Below the pieces are notes generated by a model that saw only the letters and a list, made by a program, of their open reading frames with translations, had not been told where the DNA came from and did no database searches. Below, piece by piece: positions 9,880-51,490 of a stretch of 64,000 bases of DNA. The stretch comes from Candidatus Gastranaerophilales bacterium Zag_111. GTDB lineage: Bacteria > Cyanobacteriota > Vampirovibrionia > Gastranaerophilales > Gastranaerophilaceae. The stretch lies in NCBI GenBank assembly GCA_001899395.1, contig MOYD01000024.1:436-64435 (forward strand), in the 5' to 3' direction. A program made the position numbers and the translations under genes. How positions within the stretch are numbered: position 1 is the stretch's first letter; every line of letters starts with the position of its first letter.

Positions 9880-10138
9880 GATATAAATGCGTGTAGAGAT
9901 AGCACGAAGTAATCAATTAGATTGCGGCTTAATTGACGAATCGAAAGACGTAGCAGTTAAGTTTTCAGTATGAAGGTCTTAGCTCTGGGAAATAGTTGAG
10001 GTCGAAAGACGGGAGTAAAGATTGGACTGAAACGGGGTTGCCTGACGACCTGCGTAGCTCAACCGCTAGACAATAGAAACAGGCTTGGCTGCTTTGCGGC
10101 GACAGAGTTCTCCTATCTCACAAAGGGAGTTCTAATAT
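9880..10138 (+). other. ORF-less structured spacer (possible small RNA) upstream of tRNA-Asn
   Basis: No ORF. Repeated TCGAAAGACG hairpin motifs. GGTTG..CAACC stem. Confidence 0.25.
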
Positions 10139-10210
10139 TCTTCTTTAGCTCAGCGGCAGAGCACCCATCTGTTAAACGGGAGGTCGTTGGTTCGAGTCCA
10201 ACAAGAAGAA
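10139..10210 (+). tRNA. tRNA-Asn (anticodon GUU)
   Basis: Acceptor TCTTCTT/AAGAAGA, D GCTC/GAGC, anticodon loop CTGTTAA (one A-C mismatch in the stem), T GTTGG-TTCGAGT-CCAAC. Confidence 0.8.
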
Positions 10211-10216
10211 TTATAT

Positions 10217-10537
10217 GGGGTCGTATTAGGTTCGACAGCATAATGGAAAATATTAAGCAAGCAAACCTTTTAACAAGAAATTGCACTAGTAATTTTGCAA
10301 TGGCTGCCTAAGTGCAGCCCGTCAATTATAAGTTCCTGTTGCGGCTTATAAGTTGGCGTGGATTAGCAACAGAAAAACTCAGGACAATTGTAATGCGTCT
10401 TGTTTCACCTCCTAAATTACATGGCGGCTCAATAGTTTTGTTCATTTTGTAGAGCTACTATATTAAAATGAAATAAGCTTGTAGAAAGATATTGGAAGTT
10501 ATGTTGGACAGGAGTGCAATTCTCCTCGACTCCACCA
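10217..10537 (+). ncRNA. ssrA: tmRNA (SsrA)
   Basis: 5' GGGGTCGTATTAGGTTCGAC pairs with 3' CGACTCCACCA and includes the G3-U70 Ala identity pair. T-arm AGGAG-TGCAATT-CTCCT. Internal tag frame ..ANLLTRNCTSNFAMAA-TAA. Confidence 0.85.
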
Positions 10538-10564
10538 AGACAGAGGCAGTTAATTGCCTCATAT

Positions 10565-10638
10565 TCTCCGTAAGCTTTAAGGTGAAGCACCGACCTTTTA
10601 AGTCGGAGAAGAGAGATCGTTACTCTCACGGAGAACCA
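10565..10638 (+). tRNA. tRNA-Lys (anticodon UUU), CCA encoded
   Basis: Acceptor TCTCCGT/ACGGAGA, D GCTT/AAGC, anticodon stem CCGAC/GTCGG, loop CTTTTAA. The T-loop ATCGTTA is atypical. Confidence 0.7.
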
Positions 10639-13145: not shown

Positions 13146-13290
13146 AACCACAACATGGTTAATCAAAATGATATCACAGCAAGCGGTAAGACGTTGGGAA
13201 GTAGACGAATAGGTACAGTCAGCGGTCCCTAAAACCGTGTGTTAAGGGTTCAAGTTTGGACCCAATAATAAGCGATTATTATTGAAAAGC
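13146..13290 (+). ncRNA. Candidate TnpB omega/reRNA scaffold
   Basis: GC-richer, ORF-less segment directly 3' of tnpB, where omega RNAs normally lie. No model was run. Confidence 0.3.
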
Positions 13291-13430
13291 TATTGAATTG
13301 CTGGAAACTTTACAAAGTAATCAGCAGCGAATTAATACGTTCAACGATTATTCTAATTGAAGTACAGCTTTGCTGGAAGCAATAGCCACCTCAAGCAGGT
13401 GATGATATAATCTATTTTATATTTATTCTA
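13290..13430 (+). ncRNA. Group-I-intron-like ribozyme core (compact or degenerate)
   Basis: ATTGCTGGAAA..AATCAGCAGCG..GTTCAACGATTATTCT..GAAGTA..GATGATATAATC parallels the cores of the 54730 and 55092 introns. The P7 pair is GATTA/TAATC instead of GACTA/TAGTC (compensatory change). Confidence 0.45.
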
Positions 13431-13471
13431 AATATAAAGCGAACCCCTTCTTCCCATCCAAAATGAAAATA

Positions 13472-37972: not shown

Positions 37973-38001
37973 ATTATACCATAAAATTTCTTTAAAGTCA
38001 A
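37973..38001 (-). promoter_or_regulatory. Promoter cassette (leftward), divergent with 38026
   Basis: Reverse complement reads TTGACT, 17 nt, TATAAT. Confidence 0.65.
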
Positions 38002-38025: not shown

Positions 38026-38054
38026 TTGACTTCTTAAGAAAAATATGCTATAAT
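38026..38054 (+). promoter_or_regulatory. Promoter cassette (rightward) at the head of the late block
   Basis: TTGACT, 17 nt, TGCTATAAT. Followed by a ~300-nt ORF-less leader. Confidence 0.7.
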
Positions 38055-38362
38055 TATATTATAGAGAGAAATAAAGTAGTAAATAAGTATATAAACTATT
38101 ATATTTTAATAATAGAGAAAGCCGCGATAGCGGATTTCAAAAATTTTAATTGGTCGAGCGTTAGCTCAAACGATTACAAATTTTTAAGGGGAATCGAGCC
38201 AAAAGAAACGTATTAAGAGAACGGCGGCGAAGCATTGTATTTTGGAATTGTAGTTAGTAGTAGTAATATAATAGTTTATTACTTTTCTCTTGTTTGACAA
38301 TTGTAAAGGAGGTGATAGTAATATTTAAGTTGGATTTTACTATTGAATTATAGGAAGATAGA

Positions 38363-39535
38363 ATGGAGTTTTTAAAGAAAAATGTTGATTTAAAATCTTT
38401 GTCTCAAAAAGACCTAGAATTATGTACTAATTATGTACTCTATGGAAAAGACAAAGATGGTACTTCAATGGTTGATAAGAAGCTTATTTATATTAAATCT
38501 AAACATAATTCTTATTAGAGACAAGAACCTTTATCTCTAGAAGCTTTATTAGAAGATCCAAATTTTGAAGAATCGTAGTTAAAAGAACCCACTAATATTT
38601 ATAAAAAGATTAAACCTTCAATTGATAAGGAAAAAGTTAAAGATATTCCTGGCATGGTAGAGTTATGGGAAGAAATTGATAAGTTAGATTAGTTTATTTA
38701 GATTTAGGAAGGCAAAGTTAAACCAGAATCTCCTGTTAAAAAGGTTGATTCAAAAACCCTTTATACTCTAAAACACACACTAATAGATCTTCGCCGCCAA
38801 TAGTATATTTTGAAAGATTCTTAGTTCCCTGAGATTTAGCCGAGAAAAAACTATTCTTAGTTTTATTCTAACAGCGCCGATTATTAGGTTAATTACTAGG
38901 TTTTTCCTATTGGAGTTATGAAAGACGAACATGACATTAGATTTACAGAGCCTTGGAGAGATAATAGCAGTACGGCGGTGCGAAATATTGAGGAAGAAAT
39001 TAAGCAGTTGAATAAAGAAGGAAAATTTTATTTTAATTTCCTTGATAAGAATCACATTTATCAATTGTGTTTATATTATTATGAGGTTAAGGATTTAGCT
39101 AGAAAACATCCTGATTCGCTTTTAAACAACCTATTATTAACTCTTGATTTCTATATTGATAAAGCGCATTTAAGCCCGCAGCAAAGATTAATTCTTGAAG
39201 ATAAGAAACGTAGAATGAAGAATGAGGAAATTTCTATTCACTTGTTTGAAGAACTAGGCATACATCACTAGGAAAACTATATTAGTACTATTTGGAACAA
39301 AACTTGTAAGCTCGTGGCCGCTGCAGCAAATTTACACTATGATGAGTGGCTGGCGAGAAACTATGATAAAGCGTGGAAAATTTGTGGATGTTGCGGCAAA
39401 AAATTACTTAGGGACACTAGGAATTTTGTTAGAAAAAATAACTCATATGATGGGCTTACTTTAAGATGTAAATAGTGTGATAAAAAAAAAAGGTTAGGAA
39501 TACTAGATTTAGAGGACGGGGTTAAAAATAAGTGA
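38363..39535 (+). CDS. Putative late-gene regulator (sigma region-4-like HTH plus C-terminal zinc ribbon), 13 in-frame TAG
   Basis: One frame is open only with TAG read. LSPQQRLILEDKKRRMKNEEISIHLFEELGI resembles sigma region 4. CGCCGK..CKQCDK ribbon. TGA stop. Confidence 0.5.
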
Positions 39536-39729
39536 TTTTCTTTTGAGCTATTAGATACTATAGGCTTTATAATTATTGTTTTGCCGTAAAACTTTAATTT
39601 CAATTGAATTTCAATTGTTTATTCAATTGTTTCTTAAAATACAATTCTTCGCCGCCGTTCTTACAATGAATTTTGGCGGCAGAAAACGTATTAAGAAAAT
39701 GGCGGCGAAGCAACGAGGAGGACAGATAA

Positions 39730-39978
39730 ATGGAAAAACAATTAATGGAATGTTTTACACATTTCCAGCTTGTTGATCTAATCGGATTTGCAAATATACT
39801 CCAAGTTCCCGAAGAAGAAAATTTTGAAGATTACGTGGTTAATATAGTTGAGGCTTTTGATAAGAAACCTAGACGTATTAGAAAAGAACTTGTAAAGCTT
39901 GCAAAGCAAGTTAGAGACAACAACATAGAATATGATAAGGAGATGGCGGCGAAGAAATGTAACCCTGATAGTGAATAA
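39730..39978 (+). CDS. Hypothetical protein
   Basis: RBS GAGGAGG. 82 aa, no TAG. Confidence 0.55.
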   Translation: MEKQLMECFTHFQLVDLIGFANILQVPEEENFEDYVVNIVEAFDKKPRRIRKELVKLAKQVRDNNIEYDKEMAAKKCNPDSE

Positions 39979-40901
39979 TGGCGGCGAAGCAATGTTTACT
40001 ATGTAAAGAAGATAAGTCAATTGCCAATTACATATCGGTCAAGTCTAAACTCCTAAATGGTGTAATGCCTATTTGTCGCAAGTGTATTGCTAATACAATT
40101 GCAGAAGCAAAAGAGAGCGAACTTTGGAATACTGTTGACAAGCTCTGTCAATTGGCTGACGTACCTTTTATTCCCGAAGAATTTGAACGAATTTATAAAA
40201 CAAATGGTACTGATGCCTTTGGCGCCTATTGTTATATTTTTAGAGATAAACCTTATGATACTCTGGATTGGAAAATGTACAACGAGGTTTATTTGAGAAT
40301 TCAAGAGGAAGGACGAGTTGAGGACGCTCTGCCTGAAGTGAAAGCAGATAGAGAGAATAAACTTCGTTCTAAATGGGGCGCCGAATATGAGATTTCAGAT
40401 TTAGAGTATTTGGAAAATCTTTACCAAGGTATTGTTGCTACAAGCGGTGTAGTAGGTAGTTTGAATGAAGATCAAGTATTGAAAATCTGTAAAATCTCAC
40501 TTATTATTGAAGAAAAAATAAGAGCTGGCGTTGATTTTTCAAAAGACCTTAAAGGTTACGACGACTTGTGCAAGCTCGCAGGAGTTACAACCTAGTCGGT
40601 GAAGGACGGCAGTGAATTCAATTCTGCTGGTGAAATCTTCGCTTACCTAGAGAAATTAGGTTATAAAGTTAAGTACTATGATGGCGCAATTAATGATGAA
40701 GTAGATAAAACCATTAAAGATATACAATATTGGATAAGATATTTATATGTTAATGAGACTGGTGTTGCTTCTGAAATTCAAGAGCGCATTGAGGGACTTA
40801 AGACTGCTGATAAGCTTACTGGTGAAAATTTTGACTGGGGAGAATATCGGCAATATGTAGAAGGAATCGATGAAAATGAGGACTTTGAAATTGAAATTTG
40901 A
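39978..40901 (+). CDS. Putative small terminase subunit (assigned by position), 1 in-frame TAG
   Basis: ORFs 39978..40595 and 40599..40901 share a frame, joined by TAG 40593. N-terminal CxxC..CxxC. Immediately upstream of terL. Confidence 0.45.
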
Positions 40902-40910
40902 GGTGATAGT

Positions 40911-43310
40911 ATGATATTAATGCCCGAAGCTATCGCCGCCGCAACAACGAGATTATTCAAAACAAGAGGAAAAACATTTTATAGAAATGGAATTCAATTG
41001 GAAAAAGGTGCAGTAATTAATGAGAATAGAATAAGATATAATTTAGATTTGTATGAATATTATTTTGATTTATTCAGCCAATATCCAGATATATTTATTG
41101 AATTGATTACTCCAACTGATTCAAAATTTAAACTTAAATTTTTCTAGGTTATTTTTCTAAGAGCTTGTCTACGTTATGGTCGTGTATCAGCTACTATGCC
41201 CCGTGCGGCTGGCAAGTCTTTTATTTGTATTTTAGCACTTTATTTGATTTGTATTTTTAGACCTAGGTCACACGTCAAGAAGGGCGCACTTATATTGTGA
41301 AGTGTAAGTGAAAAGATTAATTAAAAGCTGGGAAATTCTAATACTATTGATACTCGTTGCGCCGCCGCAATTTACTTAAGGCATTTTCATTGTGCAAATG
41401 GCGGCGAAGAGTTGTGAAAACAGAAACAAATTAATAGTTGGCTCATGGTTAAATCCTAAAAGCTGTGATAATGAATAATCAGCACCAAAAAGATTAAAAG
41501 AATCTTGGTTCAACGACTATTCCCTTGAGGAAGTAGGTAATACCGAAAAATTAATCGTCTTAGTAATAAGAATTGATATAGTCTAAAAGCTTTTTATGTT
41601 CACCTGGTCGAAATCAGGGCGTTAAAATTGCAACAGAAAAAATTAAACAACTATTTAATATTTTTCCTTTGTTAAAAAATGAATTAGTGGGAAATGGTAA
41701 TTTTTCGAATGATTATGTTAAGTTGACATTTAGAAATGGCTCATTATTCGATGTAATGACGCCATTAAACTCCACTCGTGGTAATCGTGCTACGTGTGGT
41801 ATTATAGATGAACATCGTTAGATAGCGATGTAAAAACTGCCTAAATTGCGGGAACGCCCTTAGAGCTTTAATAACTAAACAATTATAGTGATATAATTGC
41901 GGCAAGGTATAACGGCTTTGGTATAGTAATATAATTAAAGATTGGGTAATCAAATGCAGCAAATCTTCTCTTGAGAAGAATGTTCAGAGACTATGTAGTA
42001 AGACTTCGGTCTGAAAAAGGCAGCATATTTTTATATGATGATATAGTCCAATCCCTAAATAAATATGTCGAAAGACAGGGTTCTAAATGGATCACAACGC
42101 AGACGATATCAATGAGATCATTCTGCCTTTACTCAACGTTGACCGCCCTATGGTCAATGGAGACATAAATGAGAATGAACCTCAACAGGTTCAATTCTGG
42201 ATTTCGTCAGCGGGAGATAAAAATACATATAGTTATGATAAGACAATTGAATTATTTGAACAATAGATAATCTAGCCAAGTAAAGTGTTTTGCTTTGGAA
42301 TGGATTATAGAATTCCAATTATTTCAGGATTATTAACACCAGCATACTTGAATGAAATTAAATTGTCACCGACCTTTAATGAAATAAGCTTTGCAAAAGA
42401 ATATATGTCCCGATTTACTGGTGGCTCACAAGATGCTTGGTTTGATTTCGAGAAACTGGATTAGAATAGAACATTGATTAATCCTGAGACTCATGAGAAC
42501 CTTAAACCTGGCATCAACGCATACTATGTCATTTCAGTGGATGTGGCTCGCATAGGATGTTAGACGGTTGCCACTGTACTCAAGGTATTTCCTGATATAG
42601 AAAATGGATATAGAATTAATTTGGTAAACATATACGTACTCGGTAAAACGGAAGAGGAAAAAATCTTTGACAGATAGGTTGCAGAGCTTAAGTACTTGAT
42701 AGAGCAATTCAACCCTAAGGTCGTGATCATAGATATAAATGGCATCGGAATTTCCTTTGCAGATGCAATGATTAAAGAGACTTTTGACGAAAAATTTCAA
42801 GTAATGCGCCCAGCTTACGGCTTTAATAATAGAGAGGAATATTTACCTCTACAACCTCGTGGCTGTGAGAAGATTCTTTATGGAATTAAAGCAAATGCGC
42901 AACTTAATAGCGATATGCACTCTGCTTTATATTCAAAAGTCTATTCTGGCAAGCTTAAATTTTTAATTTCAGAAAGTGATGCAAAAGTTAAACTTCTTGC
43001 AACTAAAAAAGGGCAAAGAATGAGTCCTGAGGATAAGAATAAACGCCTATTACCTCATGAAATTACCTCTATTTTAATTAATGAAATTATGAATTTAAAA
43101 CTCAAGCCAACAGGCAATGCAAATCAGATTGCTGTTGAACAAATTAATGAACGGACATTAAAAGACAAGTTCTCTGCACTGGAGATGGGGATTTATTGGA
43201 TAGTACAAGAGGAAAACACTTTAATGTCTCGCCGCCGCAATAGAGGTTTAGGTGGTAAAAAAAGAACCTTAGTATTTTCCGGTAGAGGAGGTGGAGGTGA
43301 TAAAAGATGA
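40911..43310 (+). CDS. terL: Terminase large subunit, three exons (40911..41275, 41599..41818, 42090..43310), 6 in-frame TAG
   Basis: Walker A MPRAAGKS (exon 1), Walker B GIIDEH (exon 2), nuclease-domain-like exon 3. Frames are restored exactly by the two predicted introns. Confidence 0.8.
41276..41598 (+). ncRNA. Group I self-splicing intron (terL intron 1, ORF-less)
   Basis: Core GTTCAACGACTATTCCC..GGAAGTAGG..GATATAGTC is like the T4 td intron. Predicted P1 ACGT/GTGT and P10 TTCAC/GTGAA. Terminal G at 41598 (41589 is an alternative). Confidence 0.7.
41819..42089 (+). ncRNA. Group I self-splicing intron (terL intron 2, ORF-less)
   Basis: 7-bp P1 ACATCGT/GCGATGT with U-G at the splice site. 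Core GTTCAGAGACTATGTAG..GATGATATAGTCC is like the Tetrahymena P7 region. Terminal G at 42089. Confidence 0.75.
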
Positions 43311-50256: not shown

Positions 50257-50754
50257 TTGGAATCAATAGTTAATTATGGTCAAGAGATTGGACCAAACTT
50301 AATTAAAATTTGTAAGAAGCTATTAAATAATTAGAATTTATGTAAATTATTAGTAAACACGGACTTAGATCCAATAAATCCAAAATTACATTAGGATATT
50401 GAAGATCCCATGACGTTGTTCGGAACGAACATACGAGTTATACCTCTAGTTACTAATGATGATGAGACGACAACGAGCAAATTAGTTCTAATTTTTGCTG
50501 ATGGCTCGCCTTCAGATAATTATAGTAACGAAAACTTAAGTTTACTAATTTATATCTATTCGCCGTTTAAGGAATGGCAGATTACTGGTGATTAGCTTCG
50601 ACCTTTTGCTATTATGTCAGAAATCCGAAAGAGCTTATAGGATAAACGAATTAATGGACTTGGAGAAATCAGATACGAGGGGTTTGATATTTCATCATTA
50701 ACTGACCAAATGGGCAGTTACTTAATGAGGTTTCGTATCAATGCTTTCAGCTAA
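50257..50754 (+). CDS. Hypothetical structural protein, 4 in-frame TAG
   Basis: TTG start 6 nt after GAGGTGG. Same frame as ORF 50410..50595. TAA stop at 50752. Confidence 0.5.
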
Positions 50755-51490
50755 TTAGATTGCTGTGGTAAAAGAACAAGCTTATGCTGGATATCCATCG
50801 AAGTTTAGAAATATTTGCTATGTTAAGCCTTGTTTAATGAGTGAGTTCTTATAGATGGGTAGTGATGAATATAATTCACGGCTTGGTTTGTTATTACTAA
50901 CTGAAGACGAAATTGCTAAAATAGTGAAAACAAAAACAGGATAGAATGTTCCCCTTGAAGAGATCCATGTGTTATCATATTTACTTTAGAGTGCGAATGC
51001 AAGCAATGCATTTTTATTGGAACTCTAGAAGGCTTTTTCTACATTCATAACAGAAGATGTACTGTTGTTACCAAAAATTAATTCGGTGTTGGTCGGTCCG
51101 ATGTCGGAAAAGCGATTGATTACGGAGGAAAACTTTGGCGACTTCTAGACGATTCTGAGAATTCAAAACAGGAAGGAAGTTCCTGAACCACCTCCCGAAA
51201 ACGAGTCAGCAGTTGCTAGAAAAATGAGGTTATTACGTGAGTAGCGTGATGCTGTAAAGAGAAAGCAACAGTAGAAGGAAGGTAAAGGTTAGGATTTGGT
51301 TGATTTGTTAGAAATCGCCGAGACTTTTGGTGTTGATTATAAATAGAAATCAATTTATGCCTTCTATGGATTAATTAGGCGGCATTAGTTGAAAGAAAAA
51401 TGGGATTAGGATATTATGATGATGTGTGCTGGCGCAGATTCTAAGAAACTAAAACCGAAATATTGGGCAGAAGATCCCGATAAAACTTGA
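50741..51490 (+). CDS. Hypothetical late protein, 12 in-frame TAG in 249 codons
   Basis: Frame is open from ATG 50741 to TGA 51488 with only TAG interruptions. The translation looks protein-like (..EDEIAKIVKTKTG..PEPPPENES..). Confidence 0.5.

Follow-up and report, generated by a model that had tools for sequence, protein, structure and literature searches.

What drives late transcription in those SPbeta-like phages that have no YonO polymerase, and could a change in the genetic code take part in that control? We address this question at one locus of a recoded phage, contained in a 64,000-nt stretch of contig MOYD01000024.1 (hereafter, the window) from the assembly of Candidatus Gastranaerophilales bacterium Zag_111 (GCA_001899395.1). 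At the head of the late block of this phage, at 38363–39535 on the plus strand, lies a gene that carries many in-frame TAG codons (hereafter, the TAG-rich gene). An original prediction, made from the letters of the window, held that this gene encodes a sigma- or helix-turn-helix (HTH)-like regulator and could act as a translational gate that couples the code switch to the late program. Our favored reading, to which we assign about an even chance when taken whole, is that a conserved HTH/zinc-ribbon protein heads the late block, depends on TAG suppression for its synthesis, and controls transcription of the late operon.

Full-length translation requires TAG read-through

The reading frame at 38363–39535 comprises 390 sense codons and ends in TGA. 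Our recount agrees with the 13 in-frame TAG codons initially reported (codons 52, 72, 110, 113, 115, 147, 154, 159, 166, 175, 179, 303, and 371), and the frame contains no internal TAA or TGA. Read with the standard code, the same region breaks into fragments, the longest of 117 amino acids. Its homologs show the region to be a real gene, conserved among large SPbeta-like phages of Bacillota, and it is the first cistron of the packaging and structural block, in keeping with its designation as the first gene of the late block.

The frame stays open 5′ of position 38363. The upstream translation (IFKLDFTIELQEDR) agrees with the N-termini of homologs (consensus MKFKLDFSIETSQDR), and a plus-strand Shine-Dalgarno sequence (AAGGAGGTGA, 38306–38315) is followed, after 5 nt, by an in-frame ATA at 38321. 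On these grounds, we place the probable true start close to 38321, with ATA or GTA instead of ATG as the initiation codon. The probable full gene then spans 38321–39535 (+), with 38363 as an internal ATG, and it includes a 14th TAG at 38351. The first TAG is codon 11 if counted from 38321 and codon 52 if counted from the ATG; standard decoding would stop after 10 or 51 codons, respectively. Full-length product therefore needs read-through of 13 or 14 in-frame TAG codons, and the earlier claim that the protein can be made only under TAG suppression stands.

To establish how TAG is decoded, we drew on 67 non-redundant homologous genes from public viral contigs. Thirty-four of these contain 0–1 TAG and follow the standard code; 28 contain 4–24 TAG (24 in one relative) and are recoded. 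TAG codon 147 (38801–38803, +) stands opposite Gln in 34/34 standard-code homologs, and it is chiefly on this alignment that we conclude that TAG is read as Gln in the window phage. The column of TAG codon 303 holds Gln in 12 standard-code homologs, Ser in 18, and TAG in 12 other recoded relatives.

ARAGORN, run both at its defaults and under relaxed parameters that allowed introns, returned no credible match to a tRNA(CUA) in the window or the assembly. The early region nevertheless contains an amber-suppressor tRNA(CUA) gene (13195–13465, +), the T-loop of which is split by a group I intron. The intron, at approximately 13241–13437, scores 62 bits, and its removal in silico leaves a cloverleaf that begins at 13195 and bears a CTA anticodon. 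The complete genomes of two relatives, of 186 and 179 kb, have two intact tRNA(CUA) genes apiece within their tRNA clusters. Across the window, TAG is absent from most long open reading frames (ORFs) at 2–26 kb, with 1–2 in three of them, and most late ORFs from 38.3 kb carry it. TAG in Gln columns, a tRNA(CUA) of its own, and early genes free of TAG followed by late genes that bear it place the phage among those recoded from TAG to Gln (code 15-like).

Several further observations concern these RNA genes. The anticodon loop of the suppressor reads CC-CTA-AA, with C rather than the usual U before the anticodon, and a terminator-like hairpin and a TTGACT promoter lie 3′ of the gene. In relative G003 (the record of L036, 178.7 kb), whose homolog contains 24 TAG, ARAGORN found no tRNA(CUA) in the tRNA regions; a truncated tRNA match at 134993–135049 could be another split or unusual suppressor. 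A phage gene for transfer-messenger RNA (tmRNA) lies in the tRNA cluster of the window (10138–10638) and in that of the 186-kb relative, G001 (24.2–25.3 kb), where it adjoins the two tRNA(CUA) genes.

TAG is concentrated in the gene

The TAG-rich gene had been described as among the most TAG-dense of the window, and the counts bear this out. Its density is 34 TAG per 1,000 codons, against 7.4 per 1,000 in 17 other late genes (binomial p = 3.5e-6), and 14 of its 21 Gln codons are written TAG, compared with 50/227 in other late genes (Fisher p = 4.4e-5). Among window ORFs of at least 150 amino acids, only that at 50741–51490 is denser than 38363–39535. Eleven of the TAG codons (52–179) cluster at 38516–38899 (+), a weakly conserved part of the gene that encodes a disordered N-terminal segment, a helical hairpin, and a linker. 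The two lowest-confidence segments of the structural model, residues 47–53 and 161–163, fall within this region.

Enrichment of the homolog recurs in most recoded lineages, being denser in TAG than its neighbors in ~13 and not so in ~4. Of 100 ORFs in G001, a complete relative of 186 kb with 56% identity in this protein, the homolog shares the top TAG density.

A conserved protein with a zinc ribbon and a probable HTH

The product of the TAG-rich gene matches PHROG 5767 (E = 3.3e-17; residues 13–376 against profile positions 74–393 of 393) and has 425 close full-length relatives and more than 2,500 more distant ones (2,571). AlphaFold (AF2) models of the protein have a mean predicted local distance difference test (pLDDT) score of 87.9 overall and 94.1 for residues 205–337, a helical domain of 133 residues. 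On the N-terminal side of the ~400-residue protein, the models predict a short helical part, a long helical hairpin (98–154), and a poorly conserved linker; on the C-terminal side, they predict a seven-helix domain (209–330) followed by a beta-rich segment (338–378). Family alignments and profile tests were made with 88 members. These members, scanned at E ≤ 1, matched 72 Pfam and 39 NCBIfam families; what we say of these scans concerns the best 25 of each.

The C-terminus of the protein is a zinc ribbon of the Cys4 type (39374–39496, +), as originally proposed. Its two CxxC pairs (C341, C344, C369, and C372) are invariant in all 88 sequences, and strands are predicted at 338–369. This segment matches PhnA and Stc1 in Foldseek searches of BFVD, and Lar, endonuclease VII, and HNH profiles in a PHROGs scan.

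Residues 272–312 (39176–39298, +) form a probable LuxR/GerE-like HTH. The predicted helices at 272–282, 287–298, and 304–330 can be read as a HTH of this type, with a near-invariant recognition helix, ENYISTIWNK, that TAG codon 303 directly precedes. A profile search of the PDB aligned the domain with the GerE domain of DesR in the exact LuxR register (E = 0.084), hhalign against a GerE profile gave 31.6% (P = 5e-4 over 31 columns), and the phiCD211 homolog matched a UPF0122 HTH (E = 0.0013). Depositors have annotated homologs as "hypothetical protein," "luxR family protein," and "response regulator." Pfam GerE was not among the families listed for the 88 members, and sequence searches of Pfam, NCBIfam, and the PDB with the single protein, the 88 members, and profiles yielded no significant match. 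Foldseek searches of BFVD returned only uncharacterized phage homologs and zinc-ribbon fragments.

The domain resembles the effector domains of LuxR/FixJ/GerE proteins, such as that of B. subtilis DesR (PDB 4LDZ), in its motif register, L-S/T-x-x-(E/Q)-x-x-(I/V)-L … N-K/E-E-I-A/S … recognition helix, and in its three consecutive predicted helices with the right spacing. It differs from them in an insertion before the recognition helix, in belonging to a larger seven-helix domain, in the zinc ribbon that follows, and in the absence of a receiver domain, and none of the matches that bring out the likeness reaches significance. Taken together, these features indicate that the product is probably a HTH protein and most likely one that binds DNA in a sequence-specific manner.

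The sigma factor label lacks independent support

Of the earlier assignment as a sigma- or HTH-like regulator, the HTH part survives, by way of the weak DesR, GerE, and UPF0122 matches; the sigma part does not. Within the scans described above, neither Sigma70_r2, Sigma70_r4, nor any other sigma model matched any of the 88 members, and the query alone also gave none. When the domain alignment (A3) was compared by hhalign with a Sigma70_r4 profile built from 14 sigma factors of the host clade, the probability was 0.4%, against 92% for a control that compared GerE with the same region 4 profile. Foldseek searches of the PDB gave best E values of 0.78 for the whole model and 1.3 for the domain model, with no sigma chain among the best 50 matches of either. 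Thus, neither profile comparison nor structure prediction reveals a sigma-like fold. The "sigma factor" annotations found in phage records trace to the label of PHROG 5767; that label is without independent support, and we reject membership of the protein in the sigma-70 family.

It could still be argued that the protein is a true alternative sigma factor, which steers host core RNA polymerase to late promoters. Besides the PHROG label, its position at the head of the late block and the failure to find another sigma or RNA polymerase gene in the window or a complete relative speak for this idea. Set against the profile and structure comparisons above, and given that no alternative promoter motif was found 5′ of the late genes and that most relatives have no intergenic room for one, we regard it as very improbable.

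An early-type host promoter precedes the gene

The original prediction placed a divergent promoter pair upstream of the gene, and both members are near-consensus sigmaA-type promoters. The leftward promoter (37973–38001, minus strand) and the rightward promoter of the TAG-rich gene (38026–38054, plus strand) each have the form TTGACT-17-TATAAT with a TG extension and match 11/12 consensus positions. The window contains 25 near-perfect promoters of the form TTGAC(A/T)-17-TATAAT, where 1.2 are expected. Twenty-two are TG-extended, all lie at 2.1–38.0 kb (2144–38054), and none was found within 38.1–64 kb. The plus-strand promoter at 38026 is the last of the set and the only such promoter for the 26-kb late block. 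Since it has the extended consensus of the early-cassette promoters, and since a corresponding promoter is conserved 50–90 nt 5′ of the homolog in most relatives, recoded or not, the TAG-rich gene is most likely transcribed by unmodified host sigmaA polymerase, together with the early genes. It is this early transcription that would make a block at the level of translation meaningful.

Between promoter and gene lies an ORF-less leader (38055–38320, +), earlier put at ~300 nt; it measures 308 nt to the ATG at 38363 and 266 nt to the probable start at 38321. The leader is far longer than the 50–90 nt of relatives, folds modestly better as RNA than shuffled sequences (z = −2.4), and contains no Rfam family that we could find. 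The promoters of the window fall into two groups by their −35 element. Those with TTGACT occur at 2.1–26.8 kb and in the divergent pair at 38.0 kb, and those with TTGACA occur at 27.9–34.1 kb, on both strands and with conserved flanks of their own (e.g., a downstream "gtaaggtaaaggga").

The family occupies the position of YonO

In SPbeta, the slot at the head of the late cluster is held by yonO, which encodes a single-chain RNA polymerase that transcribes the late genes of this Bacillus phage (Forrest et al. 2017, PMC5467207). The PHROG 5767 family shares this slot, directly 5′ of an HU-like gene and the yonK-yonG-yonF module. In Brevibacillus phage Sundance and C. difficile phage phiCD211, the homolog lies directly 5′ of the HU-like gene, the position that yonO has upstream of yonN in SPbeta. 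Other SPbeta-like phages that bear a homolog include Enterococcus phages EF1 and VRE9, a Staphylococcus SPbeta-like phage, Mammaliicoccus phages, and Geobacillus virus E3; the family thus takes the YonO position in members of this group that infect Enterococcus, Clostridioides, Staphylococcus, Brevibacillus, and Geobacillus. Across a phage collection, the family occurs in 25 records and YonO in 40 with an overlap of 0, so that none of the 65 records with either family has both. Searches by tblastn of the window, the assembly, and one complete relative found neither YonO nor a host-type sigma-70 gene. This mutual exclusion, together with the lack of a YonO or sigma-70 gene in those searches, is the best argument, albeit an indirect one, for a role of the protein in late transcription.

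The likeness to YonO is one of place. YonO is a polymerase of 839 amino acids, whereas the TAG-rich gene product has ~400, consists of HTH and zinc-ribbon modules, lacks a catalytic motif, and is unrelated to YonO in sequence or fold; unlike YonO, it could at most redirect or modify the host polymerase. yonO lies outside the operon that it transcribes and is therefore presumably expressed by the host polymerase.

The genes that follow the TAG-rich gene are collinear with yonG-yonA of SPbeta. An 82-aa gene (39730–39978, +), the homologs of which directly follow or overlap the TAG-rich gene homolog in most relatives, is succeeded by a YonG-like gene (PHROG 3314; 39978–40901, +), a split large terminase gene, a portal gene, and YonD-, YonC-, and YonB-like genes. 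Pfam models YonG_N, YonD_N, and YonB match the downstream genes of close relatives, and PHROG matches in the window agree.

Late activators and antiterminators encoded just 5′ of packaging genes are familiar from other phages, among them RinA, ArpU, and LtrC of Gram-positive siphoviruses and lambda Q. Q combines a DNA-binding region with a zinc finger, and the late genes that it controls follow a strong constitutive sigma-70-type promoter as one very long operon. The TAG-rich gene product resembles these proteins in lying directly 5′ of the terminase region and in having small DNA-binding modules, and it shares with Q the arrangement of promoter and long late operon. It differs from them in that its gene is inside the operon, downstream of the operon's promoter. 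No ArpU, RinA, or lambda Q family was among those listed for the 88 members, and in this respect the analogy is one of genomic position only.

A model for suppression-dependent late transcription

Given its position, its predicted domains, and its relation to YonO, the TAG-rich gene product most likely governs how the long late operon is transcribed. In such a model, host sigmaA RNA polymerase would transcribe the gene from the early-type promoter at 38026, and standard decoding of the transcript would give only a short peptide, ending at codon 11 or 52. The full-length protein would have to await the phage tRNA(CUA), which itself would require splicing of its group I intron. By our estimate, the yield would scale with about the 14th power of the per-codon suppression efficiency. 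This implies a steep threshold, and the protein would therefore accumulate only once suppression is efficient. It could then activate transcription, act as a processive antiterminator, or regulate its own gene, filling the role that the YonO polymerase has in SPbeta.

Dependence of the full-length product on suppression follows directly from the reading frame, and a translational gate at this gene is plausible. As a further step, we infer that the many TAG codons may owe their number to selection for timing. In its strongest form, the model would have the HTH/zinc-ribbon protein, as activator or processive antiterminator, enable host RNA polymerase to transcribe the ~26-kb late operon of SPbeta-like phages that lack YonO and serve, in recoded lineages, as an ultrasensitive timer that links the code switch to the transcription switch, such that the late program fires after the suppressor tRNA has been spliced and release factor 1 outcompeted. 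We consider this extended version doubtful.

A delay of late phage genes through recoded stop codons has been published before: recoding has been proposed to time late phage expression, with a few gene families preferentially recoded (Borges et al.). Like the phages of that study, the window phage has standard-code early genes, late structural genes with in-frame TAG for Gln, and its own tRNA(CUA); unlike them, it has a suppressor tRNA gene that a group I intron interrupts. The preferentially recoded genes reported by Borges et al. are lysis genes, tail genes, and a homing endonuclease, whereas the window phage concentrates its recoding in a putative DNA-binding regulator, encoded first in the late operon and behind an early-type host promoter; this is new. 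If this protein does control late transcription, the code change would act upstream of the transcriptional switch and not only on lysis and structural proteins. Also new are the complementarity of the PHROG 5767 family to YonO in position and phyletic distribution and the finding that its sigma label is unsupported. Recoding aside, these results propose a testable role for a large uncharacterized family of more than 2,500 members.

Competing explanations

A number of observations weigh against suppression-gated control of the late operon by this protein. Half of the comparison set (34/67) has 0–1 TAG in the homologous gene, and its function must therefore be independent of recoding. Twelve of the 14 TAG codons in the window gene occupy variable positions, few of which are TAG in other recoded relatives as well; conservation in TAG columns is below the average (0.41 versus 0.53, p = 0.04), and ~40% of recoded relatives show no TAG excess in the homolog over its neighbors. 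A mid-operon gene, 50741–51490, is more TAG-dense. In 53/67 relatives, the next same-strand ORF (of at least 60 amino acids) begins within 30 nt of the homolog's stop; this close spacing implies that the first downstream genes (the 82-aa homolog, then YonG and terminase) are co-transcribed with it, and that their initiation is independent of the TAG-rich gene product. The window is atypical among its relatives in having the 266-nt leader and a 194-nt repeat-bearing gap after the gene. A shared late-specific promoter motif was not found upstream of late genes in the window, and most relatives have no intergenic gap after the homolog. Finally, Foldseek found nothing significant in the PDB for the whole or domain models, and the HTH assignment brings together several weak matches.

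These points give most force to the view that, with a suppressor tRNA in place, TAG has simply drifted to high density by mutation (e.g., CAG, AAG, or GAG to TAG) at sites that tolerate Gln in weakly constrained, modestly expressed genes, with no regulatory meaning; the TAG-rich gene would then be just another late gene in need of suppression. Neutral accumulation of this kind is a strong rival, to which we assign a substantial probability that falls somewhat short of even. It accounts for TAG positions that are mostly unshared among the 28 recoded relatives, at which homologs show K, N, S, E, D, or I, and for TAG columns that rank below random columns in conservation. It likewise accounts for the placement of 11 of the 13 TAG codons within codons 52–179, the stretch that holds the two least confident segments of the model, and for the scarcity of TAG in the highly conserved TerL, portal, and capsid genes, as constraint predicts. 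The densest real gene of the window, 50741–51490 (12 TAG in 249 codons; PHROG 4051), lies just 5′ of a 1,079-aa gene, has no gate position, and has a counterpart in G001 that is also among the densest there. Drift alone fits less readily with enrichment in ~13 lineages against ~4, with the joint first rank of the homolog among the 100 ORFs of G001, where protein identity is only 56%, and with the fact that two conserved Gln residues (147 and 303, the latter just before the recognition helix) are also TAG-encoded. It remains strong because the TAG codons are mostly unshared and sit in weakly conserved columns, a mid-operon gene is denser, ~40% of relatives lack an excess, and half of the family does not depend on TAG.

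Two other accounts would assign the gene or its TAG codons a different part. The protein might serve packaging or another DNA transaction, for example as a pac-site recognition factor or small-terminase partner, rather than transcription. Its gene opens an operon that runs straight into the YonG-like, large terminase, and portal genes, and a helical hairpin that could oligomerize, joined to a DNA-binding domain, loosely recalls small terminases. Judging from gene order, however, YonG, whose gene overlaps that of the large terminase in SPbeta, is the better small-terminase candidate; HU-like, PhoH, YonK, and YonJ-like genes separate the homolog from terminase in Sundance and phiCD211, and SPbeta packages its DNA without a homolog, having YonO at that position. 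A packaging role is accordingly unlikely. Alternatively, the function of the product could be irrelevant and the gene could work through nonsense polarity: unsuppressed ribosomes would drop off after 10–51 codons, and the naked 1.1-kb mRNA would be terminated by Rho or degraded, silencing the late operon. The gene is suited to this: it opens a block served by one sigmaA promoter, its first TAG comes very early and a dense series follows, and downstream genes abut the homolog in most relatives. Yet its RNA, with 18.5% G against 12% C, would be a poor Rho substrate, Rho is weak in many Bacillota, and standard-code relatives share the layout without TAG. We judge polarity to be less probable still than packaging.

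Repeats and other features of the window

Repeated sequences flank the TAG-rich gene on both sides. A 29-nt repeat, AAACGTATTAAGAGAACGGCGGCGAAGCA, has one copy in the leader (38206–38234, +), where it includes the phage-wide motif GGCGGCGAAGCA. Within the 194 nt that separate the gene from the next one, TTCAATTG, with its palindromic CAATTG core, is repeated three times in tandem at 39596–39633 (+), at a spacing of ~12 nt, and an inverted repeat, CTTCGCCGCC...GGCGGCGAAG, together with the second copy of the 29-nt repeat, occupies 39647–39712 (+), just 5′ of the ribosome-binding site of the next gene.

The 8-mer TTCAATTG occurs 43 times phage-wide against 6.6 expected. The GC-rich 12-mer GGCGGCGAAGCA has 35 sites when up to 2 mismatches are allowed, where 1.2 would be expected; most of them are on the coding strand, and they occur in both early and late regions (including 13990, 14997, 25702, 28017, 38223, 39701, and 39980). 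It often lies 15–35 nt 5′ of a ribosome-binding site and start codon, and an occasional upstream GCCGCC complement could pair with it as a hairpin. The YonG-like gene begins with one copy (ATGGCGGCGAAGCAA), and the motif is rare in the flanks of relatives' homologs. As candidate late-promoter motifs, we rejected GGCGGCGAAGCA and TTCAATTG, which are over-represented phage-wide rather than late-specific, and ACGTATTAAGA, which has 2 copies, a chance level.

The large terminase gene (40911–43310) appears to be divided into at least three ORF pieces, at 40911–41300, 41573–41833, and 42087–43310. Relatives carry a GIY-YIG gene at the terminase site, which suggests introns or an inserted homing-endonuclease gene. 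In G001, a 249-aa ORF at the place that matches 50741–51490 also ties for the highest TAG density.

Elsewhere in the assembly, contigs C16, C25, and C4 combine low GC content with the GGCGGCGAAG motif and may be further pieces of the window phage. Reading TAG as sense raises the long-ORF coverage of the 32-kb contig C47 from 0.58 to 0.88, and we therefore take C47 to be a second TAG-recoded phage contig in the same bin.

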